A DNA stretch of 15,838 bases from Candidatus Bipolaricaulia bacterium (lineage in GTDB: Bacteria; Bipolaricaulota; Bipolaricaulia; RBG-16-55-9), in assembly GCA_042219045.1 (NCBI GenBank), contig JBDGQO010000027.1, forward strand, positions 1-15,838. The letters are read 5' to 3'. The notes beneath the pieces are model-generated. The model was not told where the DNA came from, made no database searches, and saw only the letters and a program-made list of their open reading frames with translations. Shown here in pieces: positions 5,792-13,981 of the stretch. Within the stretch, counting starts at the first letter, position 1. Each line of letters opens with the position of its first letter. A program made the translations under genes and the position numbers.

Positions 5792-7080
5792 CCCAGCTCC
5801 TTCAGGGCTTCGTAGGCCGCGTCGACGGTCGTCTGGATGTCCTCCTCGCTGTGGGCCAGCGACGGGAACCAGGCCTCGTAGGTCGAGGGGGCGATGTAGA
5901 CGCCACGGTTGAGCAGGCCCCAGAAGAACCGGGCGAACCGCTCGGTGTCGACGTTCTGGGCGTCCGCGTAGTTCCGCACGGGCCGCTCGCTGATGAACGG
6001 CGTCAGCATCGGGCCGACGCGCTGGACGACCAGGGGCACGCCCGCGTCCTGGGCGGCTTCGCTCAGCCCGTCCGCGAGCTGTTGGGAGCGCGCTTCGAGC
6101 TCCTCGTGGACCCACGGCTCGCTCAGCTTGCGCAGCGTGGCCAACCCCGCGGCCATGGCGAGCGGGTTCCCCGACAGCGTCCCGGCCTGATACACGGGCC
6201 CCGTCGGCGCGACGTGCTCCATGACGTCGAGGCGGCCGCCGTAGGCGCCCACGGGCAGGCCGCCGCCGATGACCTTGCCGAAGCACGTCAGATCGGGCGT
6301 GACGCCGACGCGCTCCTGCGCGCCGCCGTACGCCACGCGGAACCCGGTCATGACCTCGTCGAAGACGAGCAGCGCGCCGTGCGCCTGCGTGATCTCGCGC
6401 AGCTCTTCCAGAAACCCGGGATCCGGGGGCACGAGGCCCATGTTGCCCGCGACGGGCTCGATCACCACGGCGGCGATCTCGTCCGGGAACTGCTCAAACA
6501 ACGCCCGGACGGACCCGGCGTCGTTGAACGAGGCCGTCAGCGTGTCCGCGACCGCGGCTTGGGGCACCCCGGCGGTTGCGGGGAGCCCGTGCGTGGCGAC
6601 CCCCGAGCCGGCCTCGGCCAAGAGCGCGTCCACGTGGCCGTGATAGCACCCGGCAAATTTGACGATCTTGTCTCGATTGGTGAACCCTCGGGCCAATCGG
6701 ACCGCGCTCATCGCCGCCTCCGTGCCGGAGTTGACGAACCGGACCATCTCGACGGACGGAAGCGCCTCGATCACGGTCTGGGCGAGCTCGCTCTCCATCG
6801 CGGTCGGCGTCCCGAAGCTCGTCCCCTTGGCCGCGGCGTCCTGGACGGCCTGGACGACGTCCGGATGGGCGTGGCCCAAAATCATGGGGCCGAACGAGCC
6901 GACGTAGTCGAGGTACGCGTTGCCGTCGACGTCCCAGATCCGCGCGCCCTCGGCGGAATCGACGAACACGGGCGCGCCGCCCACGCCGGCGAACGCGCGC
7001 GCGGGGCTGTCGACGCCGCCGGGGATCAGGCTCTGCGCCTCGTCGTAGTGCGCCTCGGAGCGGGTGTAGACGCGGGTCAC
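5788..7080 (-). CDS. hemL: Glutamate-1-semialdehyde 2,1-aminomutase (430 aa)
   Basis: [51 protein letters not shown] (PLP lysine), [13 protein letters not shown] 7080 with GAGGTG RBS overlaps the radical SAM stop (GTGA). Confidence 0.95.
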
Positions 7081-8246
7081 GTCACCACCTCGCCGCCGCG
7101 GGGCTGGTAGGGACAGAGCGGGTCGGCCGCGAGCGGGTCGCCCGTCGCGGCGAACGCCCGCGCGCGCGAGCCGCCGCAGATATAGCGATACTCGCACTCG
7201 CCGCAGTCGCCCCCGAACCGATCCGGGTCGCGCAGGTCGTTGAACAGCTGGCTGTCGCGATAGATCTCGACGGGGCTCGTCTGGCGCACGTTGCCGGCCG
7301 AATAGGGCAGGAAGCCGGTCGGATAGACGTCGCCCGTGTGGGAGACGAACATGATCCCGTTGCCGTCGCGTATGCCGAAGCCGTGGCCCACGGAGGTCCG
7401 CTTGATCTCCTCGGGGCTGAGCCCCTCCAGCCGCATGCGCTGATACGCCACGCGGCGGTAGCTCATCGCCTCGGTCGTCTTAATGGCAAATGGCGACTCC
7501 TGGGATTTGTCATAGACCCAGTGGAACAGCCGCTCCGCTTGGGCGTCCGTGATGGGCTTGAGGACCTTGCCGCGGCCGACCTGTACGAGGAAGAACAGGC
7601 TCCAGCGCGAGACGTCCAGCTCGCGCATCAGCTCGTGGATGTTGCCCAGATCGGGCAACGTGTCGGCAGTGACGAGCGTGTTCACCTGCAAGGGGAACCC
7701 CATCCCGCGGATCTCGCGCGCGGCCCAGACGGTCTGATCGAACGTGCCCTCGACGCCGCGGAAGTCGTCGTGCCACTCCGCGTCCGAGCCGTCGATGCTG
7801 AGCGAGAAGCCGTGGACGCCCAAATCCCGCAGCTTGCGCAGCTTTTCGCGCGTGAGTCGATTGGTGGCGCTCGGCGCAATCGAGAGCGGAAAGCCGCGGT
7901 CAAGCGCGGCCTCCACCAATTGGAATAGATCCTGGCGGTGCATGACGTCGCCGCCGGTCATCACCAGGTGCGGCGGCGGGTCGCCGAACGTTTTCAACTC
8001 GTCGAGCAGCGCCAGGCCCTCGTCGGTGCTGAGTTGGTACGGATGCGGCTCGCGCTGCGCTTCGGCGCGGCAGTGCTGACAGGCCAGGTCGCACGCGAGC
8101 GTCGTCTCCCAGTAGATGAGGATGGGGCGCTCGTCGAAGACGCGCGTCCCGTCCATGCCGGGATGGAACGCCGTCGTTGGCCGAGGGCCGGCTCTGTGGA
8201 TCTGTGCTTGCGACTCGGTCTCCGGAGTCATTTCTGAGGTGCGCAT
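7077..8246 (-). CDS. Radical SAM/SPASM protein, AhbD/NirJ-like (resembles the TIGR04053 family); candidate coproheme decarboxylase
   Basis: [19 protein letters not shown] (Cx3Cx2C), [68 protein letters not shown] before ATG 8246. Embedded in the hem operon. Confidence 0.8.
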
Positions 8247-9246: not shown

Positions 9247-10015
9247 TCGGGGTCACCTCCCGCAGGATCGCATCGGTCAAACCGTCAATCGTGTGCACCT
9301 CGGCCACGATGTCGACATCGACGCCCAGCTCCCGAACGACCTCGGCCGTGATCGGGCCGATGCACGCCACAGTCACGCCATCCAACCGCGAGCGCTCGGC
9401 GCCGAGCGCCTCGATGAACGCCCGCGCCGTCGAGCCGCTCGTGAACGTGGCGACGTCGATGCCGCCGTCGAATAACTCGTCAATATCGTCCGCGCCCAGC
9501 GAGCGATGCTCGGTCCGGTAGGCCGTGACCTCCTCGACCCGAGCGCCACGCTCGGCCAGCTGGTGCCGCAGGTCCTCGCGGGCGATGTCGGCCCGCAGCA
9601 ACAGAAACGACGCCCCCGCAACGTCGGCAAGCTCGTCGGAAATGGCGTCGGCAATAAATCGCGACGGGACGAAATCCGGCTCCACGCTGTGAGATCGCAG
9701 CGCTCGGGCGGTGGACGGCCCAATGACGGCGATCTGCGCGTTCGTCAGCTCCGCGCTCGAGCCCCCGAGCGCCTCCAGGCGCTCCATCGTGAACCGCACG
9801 CCGGCCGGACTCGTGAAGACGATCCAGTCGTAGCTCGACAGGCGCCCGAGCGCCCCGTCCATCTCGGCCCAGTCGGCCGGCGGCACCAGCGCGATCGTCG
9901 GCCGGATCACGGGCTCGGCGCCCAGGGACGCCAACTTCCGCGCAAAAACCTCGGCCCGCTCACGCGGGCGGGTCACCAGAACGCGGCGTCCCTCCAGAGG
10001 GGGTTCCCGAGTCAT
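9215..10015 (-). CDS. hemD: Uroporphyrinogen III synthase (266 aa)
   Basis: [52 protein letters not shown] 10015 overlaps the hemA-hemC stop (ATGA). Confidence 0.92.
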
Positions 10016-12357
10016 TGGAGGGCCTCCTTCAGGATCTCGTCCGCGCCGGCGTTCCAGAGCGTCGTGCCGAGGTGCCAGCCGATCTGGGGCGCGTGGTCCG
10101 GATGGCCTTCGATCGCGTCGCGCAGCACCGTCTGGCCGTCGAGGCTGGCGACCAGCCCGGTCACCACCAGCTTCCCGTCCGCGATGCGGCCGTACGCCGC
10201 AATCGGCATGCGGCAGCCGCCGCCCAGTGCGGCCAGACACGACCGCTCGGCCACGACCGCCGCGTGCGTCGTGGGATCGTCGATGGCGCCGAGGATCTCC
10301 TGCACGGCCTCGTCGTCCGCGCGCGCCTCCAGGGCCAGCGCGCCCTGGGCGGGCGCGGGCAGCACCTGCGTCGGGTCGAGGAACTGGCTGACAACGTCCA
10401 GCCGATCGAGGCGTGCCAGGCCGGCCGCCGCCAGCACGATCGCGTCGACGACGCCGTCTGTCAGCTTCTGGAGCCGGGTGTCGACGTTGCCCTGGATGAA
10501 CGTCGTCGCCAAGTCGGGACGTCGGGCCAACAGCTGGGCCGCCCGGCGCGGGCTCCCCGTCCCGACCGTCGCGCCGGAGGGCAAGCCGTCCAGCGTCGTG
10601 CCGTCGCGGGTGATGAGCACGTCGCGCGGGTCGGCCCGCTCGGGCACCGCCACGATGCGCAGATCCGCCGGCGTCTCCGTCGGGAGGTCCTTGTGGCTGT
10701 GGACGGCCACGTCGATCTCGCCGTCGTCGAGCGCCCGTTGGAGCTCCGTCACGAACGCGCCCACGTCGCCGACCTGGCCCCGATCGCCGCGGGTCTTGAC
10801 GATCTCGGTCTTGGGGGCGAGGCCCGGGTGGCGCGCCCGCAACGCGGCAATGACGTGGTTCGTCTGCGTCCGGGCAAGCGTGCTGCCGCGCGTGCCGAGC
10901 ACGAGCTCGCGCTTGGGGCCGCCGTCGGAGCGCGCACGAGAGAGACCATCGGGGGATGCGTCCGTCTGGGACGGGCCGTCGACGTCGTTCAGTTCGGCCA
11001 TCTCCGCCTGCAGCGACGGGTCGAAGTGCGGGTGGTCGACGTCGTCCAGCTCGAAGAGCTCCCGGGCGACCGTGAACGGCTCGCACGTCTCGGAGCGCTC
11101 CGCCAGCGCCTTCAGCTGGACCGTCGGCGTGTGGAGCCACTTGTTCATCATGCGGTGCGTGAGCGCCTGCAGCGTCTCCTCCTGGTCCTCGCTGAGCGGG
11201 CCGAGCTTGGAACGGGCCCACGCGAGCTCGTGCTGGCGAATCTCCTCGGCTTGATGGCGCAGCGACTTGATGAGCGGGATCGCCCGACGCTGGCGCAACC
11301 AGCTCATGAACGCCTCGGTCTCCTCCTCGACGATCCGCTCGGCGTCGGGAACGGCCGAGGCGCGCTTCTGCTGGCTGGCGTCCTTGACGGCCTTCAGGTC
11401 ATCCAGGTCGTGGATGTGAGCGTTCGGCACGTCGCGGATCTGGGGATCCAGCGTGCGCGGCACGGCCAGGTCGACGAGCAGGAGCGGGCGGCCGCGGCGC
11501 TCGTTCATAACCGCCTCGACTTGCTCCGAGGTGACGACGTAGTCCTTGCCCGGCGCGGTGGCGCTGATCAGGACGTCGGTGGTGGAGAGAACGTCCGGCA
11601 GCTCGTCCGCGCCCGTGGCTTGGCCGCCGAACTCCGCGGCCAGCTCCGTCGCTCGCTCGCGGGAGCGACTGGCGATCCGAACGTCGCGCATGCCGTTTTT
11701 GTGGAGCTGGCGGGCGACGAGCTCGCCCATCTCGCCGGTGCCCAACAGCATCGCCGAGGCCTGGCCGAAGTCGGGATGGATCTGCGCGGCGAGATCGACG
11801 GCCACGGAGCCGAGCGACGCCGGATGGCGCCCCAGGTCGGTCTCGGTGCGGACGCGCTTGCCCACCTGGATGGCCCGCCGGAAGAACGTGTCGAACAGGG
11901 GCCCGAGCGCGTCGGCGTCCCGAGACCGGTCGTAGGCGTCGCGGATCTGGCCCAGGATCTGGGGCTCCCCCAAAACTTGGGACTCCAAGCCGGCGGCCGT
12001 GGCAAACAGATGCCGCACCGCCTCCCGATTCTCGTAGACGTTCAGGTGGCGCCGCAGTTGGGCCGGGACCGACCCCTGTCGGCCCGCGAGAAAGCGCGCC
12101 AGCGGTTCGGCACAGCCGCCCACCGCGTAGAGCCCGGTCCGGTTGCACGTGGAGAGGATCGCGGCTTCGCCGAATTGGGCGCGCGAACAGCGATCGCAGT
12201 CCTCGTCGCATCCCAGGTGCAGAATGGGGATCGTGGCGAGGCCGTGCCCCTGGAGGAGCTGGCCGAGCGTATCGGGGATGTCATGGGCGTCAAGGCTCAG
12301 CTGTTCGCGCAGCTTCAGCGGCGCGGCCTTGTGGTCGATCTCCACGCTCACGATCAT
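10012..12357 (-). CDS. hemA-hemC: Fused glutamyl-tRNA reductase (HemA, about 11047-12357) and hydroxymethylbilane synthase (HemC, about 10012-10914); 781 aa
   Basis: HemA: HKAAPLKLRE, LSTCNRT, GLESQVLGEPQILGQ, GTGEMG, DLAVPR, DLDDL, NKWLHTPT. HemC: LGTRGSTLARTQ, DVAVHSHKDLP, VGTGSPRR, GNVDTRL, PAPAQGALALE, GGCRMPI. One uninterrupted frame; AAGGAG RBS before ATG 12357. Confidence 0.92.
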   Translation of the reverse strand: MIVSVEIDHKAAPLKLREQLSLDAHDIPDTLGQLLQGHGLATIPILHLGCDEDCDRCSRAQFGEAAILSTCNRTGLYAVGGCAEPLARFLAGRQGSVPAQLRRHLNVYENREAVRHLFATAAGLESQVLGEPQILGQIRDAYDRSRDADALGPLFDTFFRRAIQVGKRVRTETDLGRHPASLGSVAVDLAAQIHPDFGQASAMLLGTGEMGELVARQLHKNGMRDVRIASRSRERATELAAEFGGQATGADELPDVLSTTDVLISATAPGKDYVVTSEQVEAVMNERRGRPLLLVDLAVPRTLDPQIRDVPNAHIHDLDDLKAVKDASQQKRASAVPDAERIVEEETEAFMSWLRQRRAIPLIKSLRHQAEEIRQHELAWARSKLGPLSEDQEETLQALTHRMMNKWLHTPTVQLKALAERSETCEPFTVARELFELDDVDHPHFDPSLQAEMAELNDVDGPSQTDASPDGLSRARSDGGPKRELVLGTRGSTLARTQTNHVIAALRARHPGLAPKTEIVKTRGDRGQVGDVGAFVTELQRALDDGEIDVAVHSHKDLPTETPADLRIVAVPERADPRDVLITRDGTTLDGLPSGATVGTGSPRRAAQLLARRPDLATTFIQGNVDTRLQKLTDGVVDAIVLAAAGLARLDRLDVVSQFLDPTQVLPAPAQGALALEARADDEAVQEILGAIDDPTTHAAVVAERSCLAALGGGCRMPIAAYGRIADGKLVVTGLVASLDGQTVLRDAIEGHPDHAPQIGWHLGTTLWNAGADEILKEALQ

Positions 12358-12379
12358 CCGGTCTCGCTCCTTTCCGCGG

Positions 12380-12436
12380 TTCGACTGTCCGGTCGGATTT
12401 CGACCCAAAAATTGAATTCCGACCTTACGGTCTAAA
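12380..12436. promoter_or_regulatory. Two pseudo-palindromic GAC-N6-GTC operator sites in the hemA-hemC leader (putative TetR operators)
   Basis: TTCGACTGTCCGGTCGGA (12380-12397) and TTCCGACCTTACGGTCTA (12417-12434). Related sites at 13167-13185 and 13334-13351. Confidence 0.6.
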
Positions 12437-12497
12437 ATAGGCCCGGCGGCCGACCGTCACAATGACGAAGGTCATCTTAACATTTGATCCGGCTCAG
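12434..12497 (-). promoter_or_regulatory. Putative sigma70 promoter of the hem operon with tandem FNR/CRP-like boxes
   Basis: Minus strand TTGTGA (12462-12457), 17 nt, TATTTT (12439-12434). Palindrome ATGAC-GAAG-GTCAT at 12462-12475 (about -41.5) and TTGAT-CCGG-CTCAG at 12484-12497 (22 bp further upstream). Confidence 0.6.
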
Positions 12498-12549
12498 GCC
12501 CATGCGGTGGGCCAATAACGGGATTCGGGCGAGTCCGGTCGGACAACGC

Positions 12550-12577
12550 ACACGGCGGAGTCAGGGCTCCGCCGTGT
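12550..12577 (-). terminator. 11-bp perfect hairpin after the cytochrome gene (terminator or processing/stability element)
   Basis: ACACGGCGGAG-TCAGGG-CTCCGCCGTGT, 26 nt past the cytochrome stop. Only a weak U-rich tail (GCGUUGU) on the minus strand. Confidence 0.55.
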
Positions 12578-12603
12578 CGACCATTGGCAGCTTGGGGTTG
12601 GGC

Positions 12604-13155
12604 TCAGTTCGCGTGGCAGGACGTGCAGAACTCGGCCTTCTGGCCTTCGGTGTCCTGAGCGCTCGGGTGTTGGGCGACGACGCCGAGGTTGTGGCAGCGG
12701 GCACAGAAGCTGGCCGGTTCGTCCCCGTCGAGCGGCACCTCGCCCGCGGTGTGGCAGGTGGCGCAGAACTGGCCGCCTTGTTGGCCCTGAGTGACGTTGT
12801 GGGTTGCGGTCTTGCCGTTGTGTTGTAGCCGATGGCACTCCGCGCAGTCACTGGAGGTCCAATCCATGTCGATCGTGTGCGGCGGGTCCGGTGCGGGCTT
12901 CACCACGGGTTGATTCGCGGCAAACCGGACGTGCAAGTTGACGTGACAGCTGTTGCAGAACGAGGTCTGGTCCTGAGGCGGCTGCTCCATGGACTGGTGG
13001 CATTGCCAACAGGTTGCGGCATCGCGATTCGGGTCCACCGGCACGGGGTGGTTATCCGGCACGGGCGGCGGGGATTGCGCAATCGCGACGATGGTCAAAC
13101 CGGCGATCGCGAGCAGGGCCATGGTTGCGAGGACGAGCTTCTTGCGTTTCACCAT
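12604..13155 (-). CDS. Exported six-heme c-type cytochrome (183 aa)
   Basis: Six CXXCH motifs (CWQCH, CNSCH, CAECH, CATCH, CARCH, CTSCH). Sec-type signal MVKRKKLVLATMALLAIAGLTIVAIA-Q. AGGAGG RBS 5 nt before ATG 13155. Confidence 0.9.
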   Translation of the reverse strand: MVKRKKLVLATMALLAIAGLTIVAIAQSPPPVPDNHPVPVDPNRDAATCWQCHQSMEQPPQDQTSFCNSCHVNLHVRFAANQPVVKPAPDPPHTIDMDWTSSDCAECHRLQHNGKTATHNVTQGQQGGQFCATCHTAGEVPLDGDEPASFCARCHNLGVVAQHPSAQDTEGQKAEFCTSCHAN

Positions 13156-13166
13156 CGTCACCTCCT

Positions 13167-13248
13167 TTCCGAGGATTGCGGTCTATTCTAGACAGGCACG
13201 TCCGTTATCGACATGATGTCCATCAGATCCCGGATTGAGATGGATCAT
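13167..13248 (-). promoter_or_regulatory. Putative cytochrome promoter with tandem FNR/CRP-like boxes and an operator
   Basis: Minus strand TGTCGA (13213-13208), 17 nt, TAGAAT (13190-13185), then AGACCGCAATCCTCGGAA. Boxes ATGAT-GTCC-ATCAG (13213-13226, about -41.5) and TTGAG-ATGG-ATCAT (13235-13248). Confidence 0.6.
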
Positions 13249-13293
13249 GCCGCGCGAAGGGAGGGGGCATCGCAATCTGGATAATCCGATGCG

Positions 13294-13351
13294 TTGATCT
13301 CGATCATGGACGAGGCCGATCGCCGCCCGTATACTGACCGGCCAGTCGGAA
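13294..13351 (+). promoter_or_regulatory. Putative tetR promoter with an FNR-like box and a likely autoregulatory operator
   Basis: TTGAT-CTCG-ATCAT (13294-13307, one mismatch to the FNR consensus, about -41.5). TGGACG (13307-13312), 17 nt, TATACT (13330-13335), directly followed by GACCGGCCAGTCGGAA (13336-13351). Confidence 0.65.
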
Positions 13352-13372
13352 CCCGAATCGGCGGTCGAGACC

Positions 13373-13981
13373 ATGGGAGTCTCCGAACGACGCGAACAAG
13401 AGCGCCACGAGCGCACCCAGCGTATCCTGGAGGCCGCGCTGCGGGTCTTCGCCCGCGAGGGCCTGCGCCCGGCGACGATCGAAGCCATTGCGGGCGAGGC
13501 CCAGCTCGGCAAGGGGACGATCTACTACTACTTCTCCTCCAAGGAAGCGCTTCTGGAGGAACTGGTCGCCAACCTCTCCGACGAATACTTCCGCGGGCTC
13601 CTGGCCGGCGCGTCCGGGCATGCGACGCCCCTGGCCATCGCACAGGGCATCGTCGAGCGGCTCATCGAGCACTATCGCGGGAAACCCGAGCTGTTCCGCG
13701 TCATCCACATGGTGTTGGGCGAGCCCGAGCCCCGTCCGCAGAAGGCGCTGGAGGCGTTTGTCGACTCCCACCTGAGCTGGATCGAGAACCTCAAAGACGA
13801 GACGGCCGAGGTGCTCCAGGCTCACGGCGTTCCCGAGGACGCCTTCCTCTATCTCGTCAGCACGTTCAGCCACGGCGTGCTCTTCGAGGCCGTGTCGGGG
13901 CGCGACCCCGATCGGCTGCTGAATGAAACCCGTGTGGCGCTGGAGGCGTTTCTGGCGTCTTTTTCGGGAACAACGTCGTAG
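13373..13981 (+). CDS. TetR/AcrR family transcriptional regulator (202 aa)
   Basis: N-terminal HTH: ILEAALRVFAREG..ATIEAIAGEAQLGKGTIYYYFSSKEAL. Divergent from the cytochrome/hem genes. Confidence 0.92.
   Translation: MGVSERREQERHERTQRILEAALRVFAREGLRPATIEAIAGEAQLGKGTIYYYFSSKEALLEELVANLSDEYFRGLLAGASGHATPLAIAQGIVERLIEHYRGKPELFRVIHMVLGEPEPRPQKALEAFVDSHLSWIENLKDETAEVLQAHGVPEDAFLYLVSTFSHGVLFEAVSGRDPDRLLNETRVALEAFLASFSGTTS

Follow-up and report, generated by a model that had tools for sequence, protein, structure and literature searches.

The stretch of DNA analysed here (15,838 nucleotides; “the window”) is the whole 15.8-kb contig C26 of a 105-contig, 2.43-Mb metagenome-assembled genome (MAG) of the Bipolaricaulota, designated G000 (89% complete, 64% G+C). 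It carries on its minus strand a heme biosynthesis operon, headed by a fused hemA-hemC gene for glutamyl-tRNA reductase and porphobilinogen deaminase (10012–12357; 781 aa; ATG at 12357), and a gene for a multiheme c-type cytochrome of the Cytochrome_C7/c3 type (12604–13161; 185 aa from GTG 13161); divergent from the latter, a gene for a TetR-family regulator is found on the plus strand (13373–13981; 202 aa), all three being assigned with Pfam. An original prediction, made from the window alone, held that the promoters of these genes are under one and the same dual control and define a dedicated heme-supply and multiheme-cytochrome regulon. Based on comparisons with a relative of the same genus (G001) and with other related genomes (G002, G004, G011, G012, G020 and others), we consider a modified reading likely, according to which class II activation by CRP/FNR-type proteins would be combined with repression by TetR from operator arrays at the heme operons, with the cytochrome promoter responding to the activator only.

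Each of the three promoters contains a 14-bp palindrome, namely ATGACGAAGGTCAT at 12462-12475 (hemA), ATGATGTCCATCAG at 13213-13226 (cytochrome) and TTGATCTCGATCAT at 13294-13307 (tetR). Direct reading confirmed these predicted coordinates, together with the 17-nt spacer and the overlap of each palindrome with the first base of the -35 hexamer. From the 12-bp core of each box, exactly 23 nt towards the gene lead to the -10 hexamers TATTTT (hemA), TAGAAT (cytochrome) and TATACT (tetR). At hemA, the proximal box (12463–12474, minus strand; TGACCTTCGTCA on the gene strand) is identical in G001 and has a counterpart at equal distance from the -10 in G004, G020 and G011; it is followed by the -35-like hexamer TTGTGA (12457-12462) and the -10 hexamer (12434–12439), which is kept in G001, and its centre lies 41.5 nt from the transcription start site predicted near 12427. 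The proximal box of the cytochrome promoter (13214–13225, minus strand) precedes its -10 hexamer at 13185-13190, and that of tetR (13295–13306, plus strand; TGATCTCGATCA) is followed by the -35-like TGGACG (13307-13312) and the -10 hexamer (13330-13335). Distal boxes with one mismatch each, which were absent from the original prediction, are located 22 bp upstream of the proximal ones at hemA (12485–12496, minus strand) and at the cytochrome (13236–13247, minus strand; TGATCCATCTCA on the gene strand). Both cytochrome boxes are perfectly kept in G001, the spacer being variable, and tandem boxes with the 22-bp offset are also present in G004 and G012. Between the cytochrome and tetR promoters, the block ATCTGGATAATCCGATG (13275-13291) stands out from variable surroundings, with a single change in G001. 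A further box, placed 22 bp upstream of the tetR box, overlaps this block in G001, where it has one mismatch; in G000, it has three.

The -35 hexamers of the three promoters are weak (TTGTGA, TGTCGA at the cytochrome, and TGGACG), and a consensus promoter scan accepts the tetR promoter only; the hemA and cytochrome promoters fail at the -35, as is expected of activator-dependent promoters. Given the fixed box-to--10 distance, a box position of -41.5 is implied if transcription starts 7 nt past the -10. Class II activation by FNR of Escherichia coli employs the consensus TTGAT-N4-ATCAA at -41.5, and the boxes resemble such FNR/CRP sites in being 5-N4-5 inverted repeats with a TGAT/ATCA core that overlap a weak -35 in a fixed place. 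The phasing of box and -10 is in keeping with the class II geometry of the original prediction, the start sites being predicted ones.

Counted over the whole genome, TGAY-N4-RTCA occurs 223 times and TGAY-N7-RTCA 242 times. As these raw counts are confounded by codon periodicity, counting was moved to noncoding DNA, i.e., the ~405 kb remaining outside our own crude gene calls (1952 genes, 83% of the bases), where TGAY-N4-RTCA is found 87 times versus 20-44 times at each other spacing from N0 to N10. Of 174 oriented noncoding flanks, 19 have a TANNNT hexamer that begins exactly 23 nt past the box, seven have one at 24 nt and three at 22 nt, the frequency in control flanks (boxes of other spacings) being ~0.5% per position. 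The composite of box, 22-24 nt and TANNNT has 29 matches genome-wide, 29/29 of them noncoding, and this geometry, together with the N4 excess, is well above chance. The base following the box is T in 26 of these 29 sites and the base two positions on is G in 20, with no preference at the mirror position upstream; such a T-n-G asymmetry would be expected from a remnant of the -35 hexamer. A distal box with up to one mismatch lies at exactly 22 bp upstream in six of the 29 class II promoters, including those of hemA and the cytochrome, compared with none or one at the other offsets from 10 to 35. The overlap with the -35 position, together with the ability of CRP/FNR proteins to repress, would also allow the boxes to be read as repressor sites that occlude the -35. 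Against this stand the single-base phasing to the -10 across 29 promoters, the weak -35 hexamers and the asymmetric T-n-G past the box, all of which are expected for class II activation and unneeded for occlusion, and we regard an occluding role as very improbable.

Outside the window, Pfam was run on 25 of the 28 open reading frames (ORFs) downstream of the boxes, the other three being the window's hemA-hemC, cytochrome and tetR genes. The products comprise a ferredoxin, two AhpC/TSA-redoxin proteins, IspH, Fur-family and Rrf2-family regulators, a succinate dehydrogenase cytochrome b subunit, a Rieske protein, two more multiheme cytochromes, a bacteriorhodopsin-like protein, glutamate dehydrogenase (GDH), a large oxidoreductase fusion, a multicopper oxidase, ScdA, a NosD-like protein, riboflavin synthase and PPDK. 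As far as can be read from sequence, the boxes are those of a broad, global, redox-flavoured CRP/FNR-type regulon of ~29 promoters, and not of one defined by heme or cytochromes. The dedicated heme-supply and multiheme-cytochrome regulon was, hence, not borne out. Class II boxes are, it is true, also found at two multiheme cytochrome genes outside the window, but the same architecture is carried by promoters of very mixed function, among them those of the rhodopsin, GDH, PPDK, IspH, Fur, Rrf2 and ScdA genes.

The bacteriorhodopsin-like gene (C34:32063-32922; Pfam Bac_rhodopsin, 144.8 bits) is preceded by a class II box promoter made up of box, 22 nt and TAGAAT. Contig C34 itself is a hot spot: 14 of the 87 noncoding boxes are located on it, as are a divergent pair of CRP/FNR genes and two genes for multiheme cytochromes. 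On another contig (C53:1234-4950), three genes follow each other, each with a class II box promoter, namely those for a CRP/FNR protein with a cysteine-rich N-terminus, a multicopper oxidase and a ScdA/hemerythrin protein; their arrangement is reminiscent of nitric oxide (NO)-responsive clusters.

The FNR/CRP-family gene that the original prediction expected elsewhere in the genome is represented by 14 HTH_Crp_2 genes above the Pfam cut-off. A box lies no further than 250 bp upstream of four of the 14, compared with 92 of all 1952 genes (Fisher p = 0.003). None of the 14 proteins qualifies as FNR proper, the best scores with the NCBIfam FNR model being 27-72 bits versus a cut-off of 228. Several of the paralogs possess N-terminal cysteine motifs, such as CxxCx4C in the C34:6214 gene, with a putative likeness to the cluster motif of FNR, and at least ~8 of the 14 display, by eye, a recognition helix of the E/Q-x-x-(S/I)-R type, as judged against the corresponding residues of E. 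coli FNR. The number of paralogs and helices of this type, together with the very mixed target functions and the difference between the hemA box (TGAC...GTCA) and those of the cytochrome and tetR (TGAT...ATCA), could mean that the boxes are read by several CRP/FNR paralogs with differing signals, so that the three promoters would not be co-regulated. In the orthologous hemA boxes of relatives, however, the Y and R variants are freely mixed, so that TGAC versus TGAT is no stable discriminator, and the tandem boxes of one promoter mix both types as well; we see separate control by several paralogs as possible, if rather unlikely. A repertoire of CRP/FNR proteins with hemA among the targets is shared with known FNR/CRP systems; for Pseudomonas aeruginosa, control of the hemA promoter by Anr/Dnr was reportedly described by Krieger et al. 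in 2002.

The boxes are conserved at orthologous loci to different degrees. All three proximal boxes and the distal cytochrome box are kept in G001, with varying box-to--10 spacers. Among 20 orthologous tetR loci, 19 carry a box with up to one mismatch that is followed by TANNNT at 22-24 nt, and 13 of these 19 have in addition a distal box (up to two mismatches) 22 bp upstream. At hemA, the architecture occurs in five of seven loci of the window's type and in one of nine others. Of 17 cytochrome loci, five show it by this strict rule, and 11 have an exact box no more than 300 bp upstream; the remaining six are, by eye, directly preceded by the end of another ORF.

The second element of the original prediction was a site of the form GACCG-N4/5-[GC]TCGGAA, located 0-1 nt past each -10. 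All three strings are present, and six matches are found genome-wide, three of them in the window, with ~2 expected from base composition (hand arithmetic). As a motif of its own, it had to be abandoned, given that the orthologous promoters reveal it as an off-register reading of TTCGAC-N6-GTCGAA, in which GAC and GTCG are half-site bases and “CG” belongs to the spacer. Nor is it conserved as written, with seven of 49 motif positions changed in G001, which is about the background rate; in the corrected register, the changes between G000 and G001 are in the spacer at hemA and tetR, and in the half-sites at the cytochrome. The sequence comparison identifies the second motif as a predicted TetR operator of 18 bp, TTCGAC-N6-GTCGAA, that is repeated in tandem with a 19-bp period. 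In other genera, the -10 of tetR is immediately followed by two perfect or near-perfect copies of it, 19 bp apart, and tandem operators with up to two mismatches are present in this position in 18 of 20 orthologous loci, the exceptions being G000 and G001. Upstream of hemA, operators occur in G001, G004, G011 (both copies), G024 and G026, and also at the second hemA gene of G000 on contig C40.

To rank the sites, a matrix was derived from 43 sites of relatives (18 tetR and six hemA loci; up to two mismatches from the consensus), leaving out G000 and G001. Within the 2.42 million windows of G000, the site of the second hemA gene scores highest (26.2), and three predicted operators in the leader of the window's hemA gene are all among the five best. 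The first of them, O1 (12418–12435, minus strand; TTAGACCGTAAGGTCGGA; two of 12 half-site mismatches; score 19.6, rank 2), overlaps the end of the -10 and corresponds to the site given as GACCG...GTCGGAA in the original prediction, from which the other two are absent. These are O2 (12399–12416, minus strand; score 18.6, rank 4-5), placed 19 bp from O1, and, a further 19 bp on, O3 (12380–12397, minus strand; TCCGACCGGACAGTCGAA; one mismatch; score 18.6, rank 4-5), which lies 23 nt upstream of the hemA start codon and reads CTCGACCGCTCAGTCGAA in G001. The leader of tetR contains two degenerate units with the same 19-bp period (13333-13350 and 13352-13369, plus strand), the positional homologues of the relatives' tandem operators; the first scores 12.3, a value reached by 36 windows of G000, and the second scores a weak 4.2.

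An operator (up to two mismatches, within 500 bp) is present at ten of 11 hemA loci of TetR-bearing genomes versus none of five in TetR-less genomes, these 16 loci from non-independent kin being all that the hemA search returned. In G004 and G020, tetR and hemA are adjacent or divergent. The repeats past the -10 might alternatively be leader RNA hairpins, acting in attenuation or stability, or mere start-site context, considering that each TTCGAC-N6-GTCGAA could form a 6-bp hairpin and that the units lie within transcribed leaders. Their occurrence follows the TetR gene, however, and they occupy the promoter of the regulator itself, the usual arrangement in the TetR family; furthermore, the half-site is nearly invariant and the spacer varies, with no compensatory changes in the frequency table of the matrix, the fold of the hemA leader is unremarkable (z = -0.83), and no Rfam family matches at E <= 1 in 12300-13450. 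An RNA-based or purely contextual role is, in our judgement, hardly credible, and the repeats are treated as TetR operators in the following.

Several operator-like sites elsewhere in G000 were taken as chance matches. They include a site with two mismatches upstream of a LysW-aminoadipate kinase gene (C80:41918), single matrix matches inside crude gene calls (C80:6567, C29:43497 and C49:7201) and single matches between crude calls, far from called starts (C68:34539 and C50:16022). The 17-mer GACCGCAATCCTCGGAA recurs at C94:46090 (BLAST E-value 0.14) in a differing context, between ribosome-binding site and ATG of an ORF without a Pfam family, and was likewise attributed to chance.

The second hemA gene (hemA2) belongs to an operon on contig C40 (C40:37500-41480), followed by a chlorite-dismutase-family gene of the chdC/hemQ type and a ferrochelatase gene. 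Its promoter is sigma-70-like and lacks a CRP/FNR box; it carries the only perfect TTCGAC-N6-GTCGAA of G000 and a second unit 19 bp away. Judged from their gene content, the two operator-bearing operons would jointly cover a coproporphyrin-type pathway.

The cytochrome promoter does not fit into this picture in the way the original prediction had assumed. Its string GACCG-N5-CTCGGAA (13167–13183, minus strand) has its half-sites spaced by N7, the matrix gives nothing above 3 bits at this promoter, and in G001 the string reads GGCCGTAATCCTGGGAA, with changes at GAC and CTCGG at about the background rate. Moreover, neither operator nor string is present at the cytochrome promoters of G004 and G002, nor is such a string found at the paralogous cytochrome promoter on C34. 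In favour of an identical dual control, it can be said that the three strings past the -10 are strikingly alike and that the first ten bases are near-identical between the cytochrome (13167-13192) and hemA (12417-12441), reading AGACCGCAAT and AGACCGTAAG on the minus strand. The shared AGACCGYAA directly past the -10 is unlikely to be pure chance; only at hemA is it part of a credible operator, and at the cytochrome a decayed or recently copied site is possible. By sequence criteria, 13167–13183 is probably not a functional TetR operator. From the predicted dual control, the part concerning hemA stands, the part concerning tetR is weakly supported in this genus, and the part concerning the cytochrome probably falls; identical dual control of all three promoters within a dedicated regulon appears quite improbable.

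Taken together, the favoured circuit would operate as follows. One or more of the 14 CRP/FNR regulators would bind TGAY-N4-RTCA, centred ~41.5 nt upstream of the starts of hemA-hemC, the cytochrome gene and tetR, often with a second dimer site 22 bp further upstream, and would thereby bring about class II activation of these weak-(-35) promoters, which would be members of the broad regulon of ~29 promoters. TetR would bind its 18-bp operators, which form a head-to-tail array with one unit per 19 bp that runs from the -10 into the leader, with three operators on hemA-hemC, two on hemA2-chdC-ferrochelatase and two decayed ones on tetR, and bound TetR would block initiation or early elongation. 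The sites, their geometry, enrichment and conservation, and the co-occurrence of operator and TetR are read directly from the genomes; to these, the circuit adds proposals as to which proteins bind, whether they activate or repress, where transcription starts and what is sensed. In a type-1 incoherent feed-forward loop, an element X activates both a repressor Y and a target Z, and Y represses Z. With the activator as X, tetR as Y and hemA as Z, heme synthesis would be subject to such a loop, the motif wiring of which is found in G000, G001 and G004. The loop put forward in the original prediction is accordingly supported for hemA and not for the cytochrome, which has no credible TetR operator and would receive the activator input only. 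It would differ from a plain type-1 loop in that it is deduced here from binding sites, that Y is proposed to be ligand-controlled and, in relatives, autoregulated, and that the cytochrome stands outside.

Several points weigh against this circuit. Regarding the activator, the outer T of TTGAT is not conserved in the boxes, and the scores of all 14 CRP/FNR proteins stay below the cut-offs of the named NCBIfam models. The lost outer T/A of the consensus, the frequent second box at exactly 22 bp and the 14 paralogs without a named model, in an uncultured MAG of the Bipolaricaulota/Fraserbacteria clade, set the system apart from that of E. coli FNR, and different paralogs may serve different boxes. 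All start sites are predicted from sigma-70-like -10 hexamers in a phylum without mapped promoters. Concerning the repressor, the two units in the tetR leader are decayed in this genus, with four of 12 half-site mismatches each, which renders autoregulation uncertain here, and G014 possesses TetR and a hemA gene without operator. The operator shows no overall excess in noncoding DNA, with 29 sites (up to two mismatches) at N6 versus 22-41 at other spacings; this lack fits a small, local regulon. A TetR orthologue is, furthermore, present in 20 related genomes in which neither hemA nor hemB was found, and TetR is, therefore, not strictly a regulator of heme synthesis; in one of them, G012, tetR heads an operon that also encodes a hypothetical secreted protein and an MMPL transporter of 830 aa. 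Finally, the matrix sites were picked by consensus likeness, the gene calls are crude, and the relatives, being kin, are non-independent samples.

In this G012 operon (C2:134500-140110; loci L038 and L186), tetR is preceded by a tandem box and by two perfect operators, the latter ending at its ATG, without a visible Shine-Dalgarno sequence. The protein encoded downstream of tetR has no Pfam family, falls into Atlas clusters labelled only “hypothetical”, and yielded no homologue in G000 with this query; of the MMPL transporter, G000 has distant relatives only. Overall, a TetR orthologue is found in 28 of 41 related genomes, the cytochrome in 21 of 41, and hemA and hemB in the same 13 of 41. Many relatives in which hemA and hemB were not found still carry orthologues of the multiheme cytochrome and TetR, which suggests, at the level of gene content, widespread heme auxotrophy combined with cytochrome use.

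The TetR protein itself is a clear family member by its TetR_N domain (Pfam, 62.5 bits versus a cut-off of 24). No NCBIfam model is reached above its cut-off. Its structure model, built from 16 sequences, is all-helical with ten helices (pLDDT 91.5); L034, L039, L045 and L047 were left out of alignment and model owing to unclear starts or in-frame stops. A sequence search of the PDB matched mainly the N-terminal DNA-binding domain, with a few of the weakest matches spanning most of the protein, and all Foldseek matches are TetR-family proteins of generic fold (TM 0.53-0.73); no protein named as a heme sensor is among the 60 PDB sequence matches shown or the Foldseek matches listed. In the ligand domain, H133, W136 and H167 are invariant, in addition to P105, F108, P118, F129, T164, G168, G176 and R177. 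HrtR ligates heme through two histidines, and the two invariant ligand-domain histidines of the window's TetR recall this arrangement, with heme binding being putative. Heme or another tetrapyrrole as the TetR ligand is a guess.

Heme-sensing repressors of the TetR family, namely HrtR, HatR and FhtR, are described in the consulted parts of the literature (PMC11442138, PMC6303022, PMC7858072), and, according to the consulted part of one of these, they repress heme efflux pumps until heme displaces them from the DNA (PMC11442138). As far as these partial sources go, the window's TetR shares with them the link to heme homeostasis and, in relatives, a palindromic operator at its own promoter; it differs in that its predicted targets are heme-synthesis operons instead of efflux pumps, which places it outside this class, and no specific likeness in sequence or fold to them was seen in the PDB and Foldseek matches. 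Release by heme in the manner of HrtR would create positive feedback on hemA; a role as co-repressor would, hence, be expected of heme, provided that it is the ligand. A far-reaching proposal can be built on this, in which TetR founds an undescribed subfamily and is the master repressor of heme supply in the Bipolaricaulota. Heme or a late tetrapyrrole, held by H133 and H167, would be the co-repressor, and the loaded TetR would polymerise at both heme operons over the arrays of 18-bp operators with their 19-bp period. Since repressor and hemA alike would be driven by an FNR-type activator, the response to a shift in O2 or NO would be a self-limiting pulse in which heme synthesis is timed to the production of the cytochrome. 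In cytochrome-bearing relatives without hemA and hemB, TetR would govern an MMPL-type operon that supplies or disposes of heme. As a joint claim, this proposal is unlikely.

Several further features of the locus deserve mention. In the order of transcription, the heme operon comprises hemA-hemC, hemD, hemB, an AhbD-like radical SAM gene, hemL, hemE and a gene for a HemY-like oxidase (Pfam). The radical SAM/SPASM gene (7077-8246, minus strand), which lies beside that of the HemY-like flavin oxidase, exceeds the cut-off of NCBIfam TIGR04053, its relatedness to AhbD heme b synthase staying below the cut-off; its presence hints that one step of an otherwise coproporphyrin-type pathway is oxygen-independent. 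Orthologues of hemA in G001, G004, G020 and G026 are open frames of 735-829 aa, the length of which suggests that the hemA-hemC fusion is conserved there. HemA of the window type has, at residues ~48-70 (~12150-12215, minus strand), three close cysteines (GCDEDCDRCS) immediately before the catalytic STCNR motif; alignment with canonical HemA proteins, including the second copy of G000, starts only at query residue ~58-64. For the cytochrome gene, the alternative start codon ATG 13155 is better spaced from AGGAGG. A GC-rich hairpin with an 11-bp stem (12550–12577, minus strand; -28.8 kcal/mol, z = -2.46) is located 27 nt past the cytochrome stop codon, between the cytochrome gene and the hemA promoter; it is terminator-like, lacks a U tract and was not picked up by a terminator scan for T-runs. 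With this hairpin following the cytochrome gene, hemA plausibly has its own promoter.

Among known regulators of heme synthesis, the consulted parts of two sources name Irr of the Fur family, HbrL of the LysR family, the two-component systems HrrSA and ChrSA, and PerR (PMC11442138, PMC5189952), and Fnr is listed with the regulators of heme homeostasis (PMC11442138). Dedicated control of early heme genes (hemA, hemB) would be shared with Irr, HbrL, HrrSA/ChrSA and PerR, the protein family being a different one. No TetR-family regulator of hemA or glutamyl-tRNA reductase was found in the portions of the literature covered, nor was anything found there on heme regulation in the Bipolaricaulota; the word TetR is absent from PMC13258150.

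The components of the proposed circuit are ordinary regulator families, placed here by sequence comparison. A lesson of more general kind is that the motif drawn from three paralogous sites of one genome was off-register and that orthologous promoters corrected it. We know of no experimental work on transcription control in the Bipolaricaulota/Fraserbacteria. For this phylum, the locus offers a concrete candidate circuit, consisting of a class II box phased to the single base, a frequent second box at 22 bp and a TetR operator array on both heme operons. If confirmed, a TetR repressor of hemA would extend the known regulators of heme synthesis by a further protein family.

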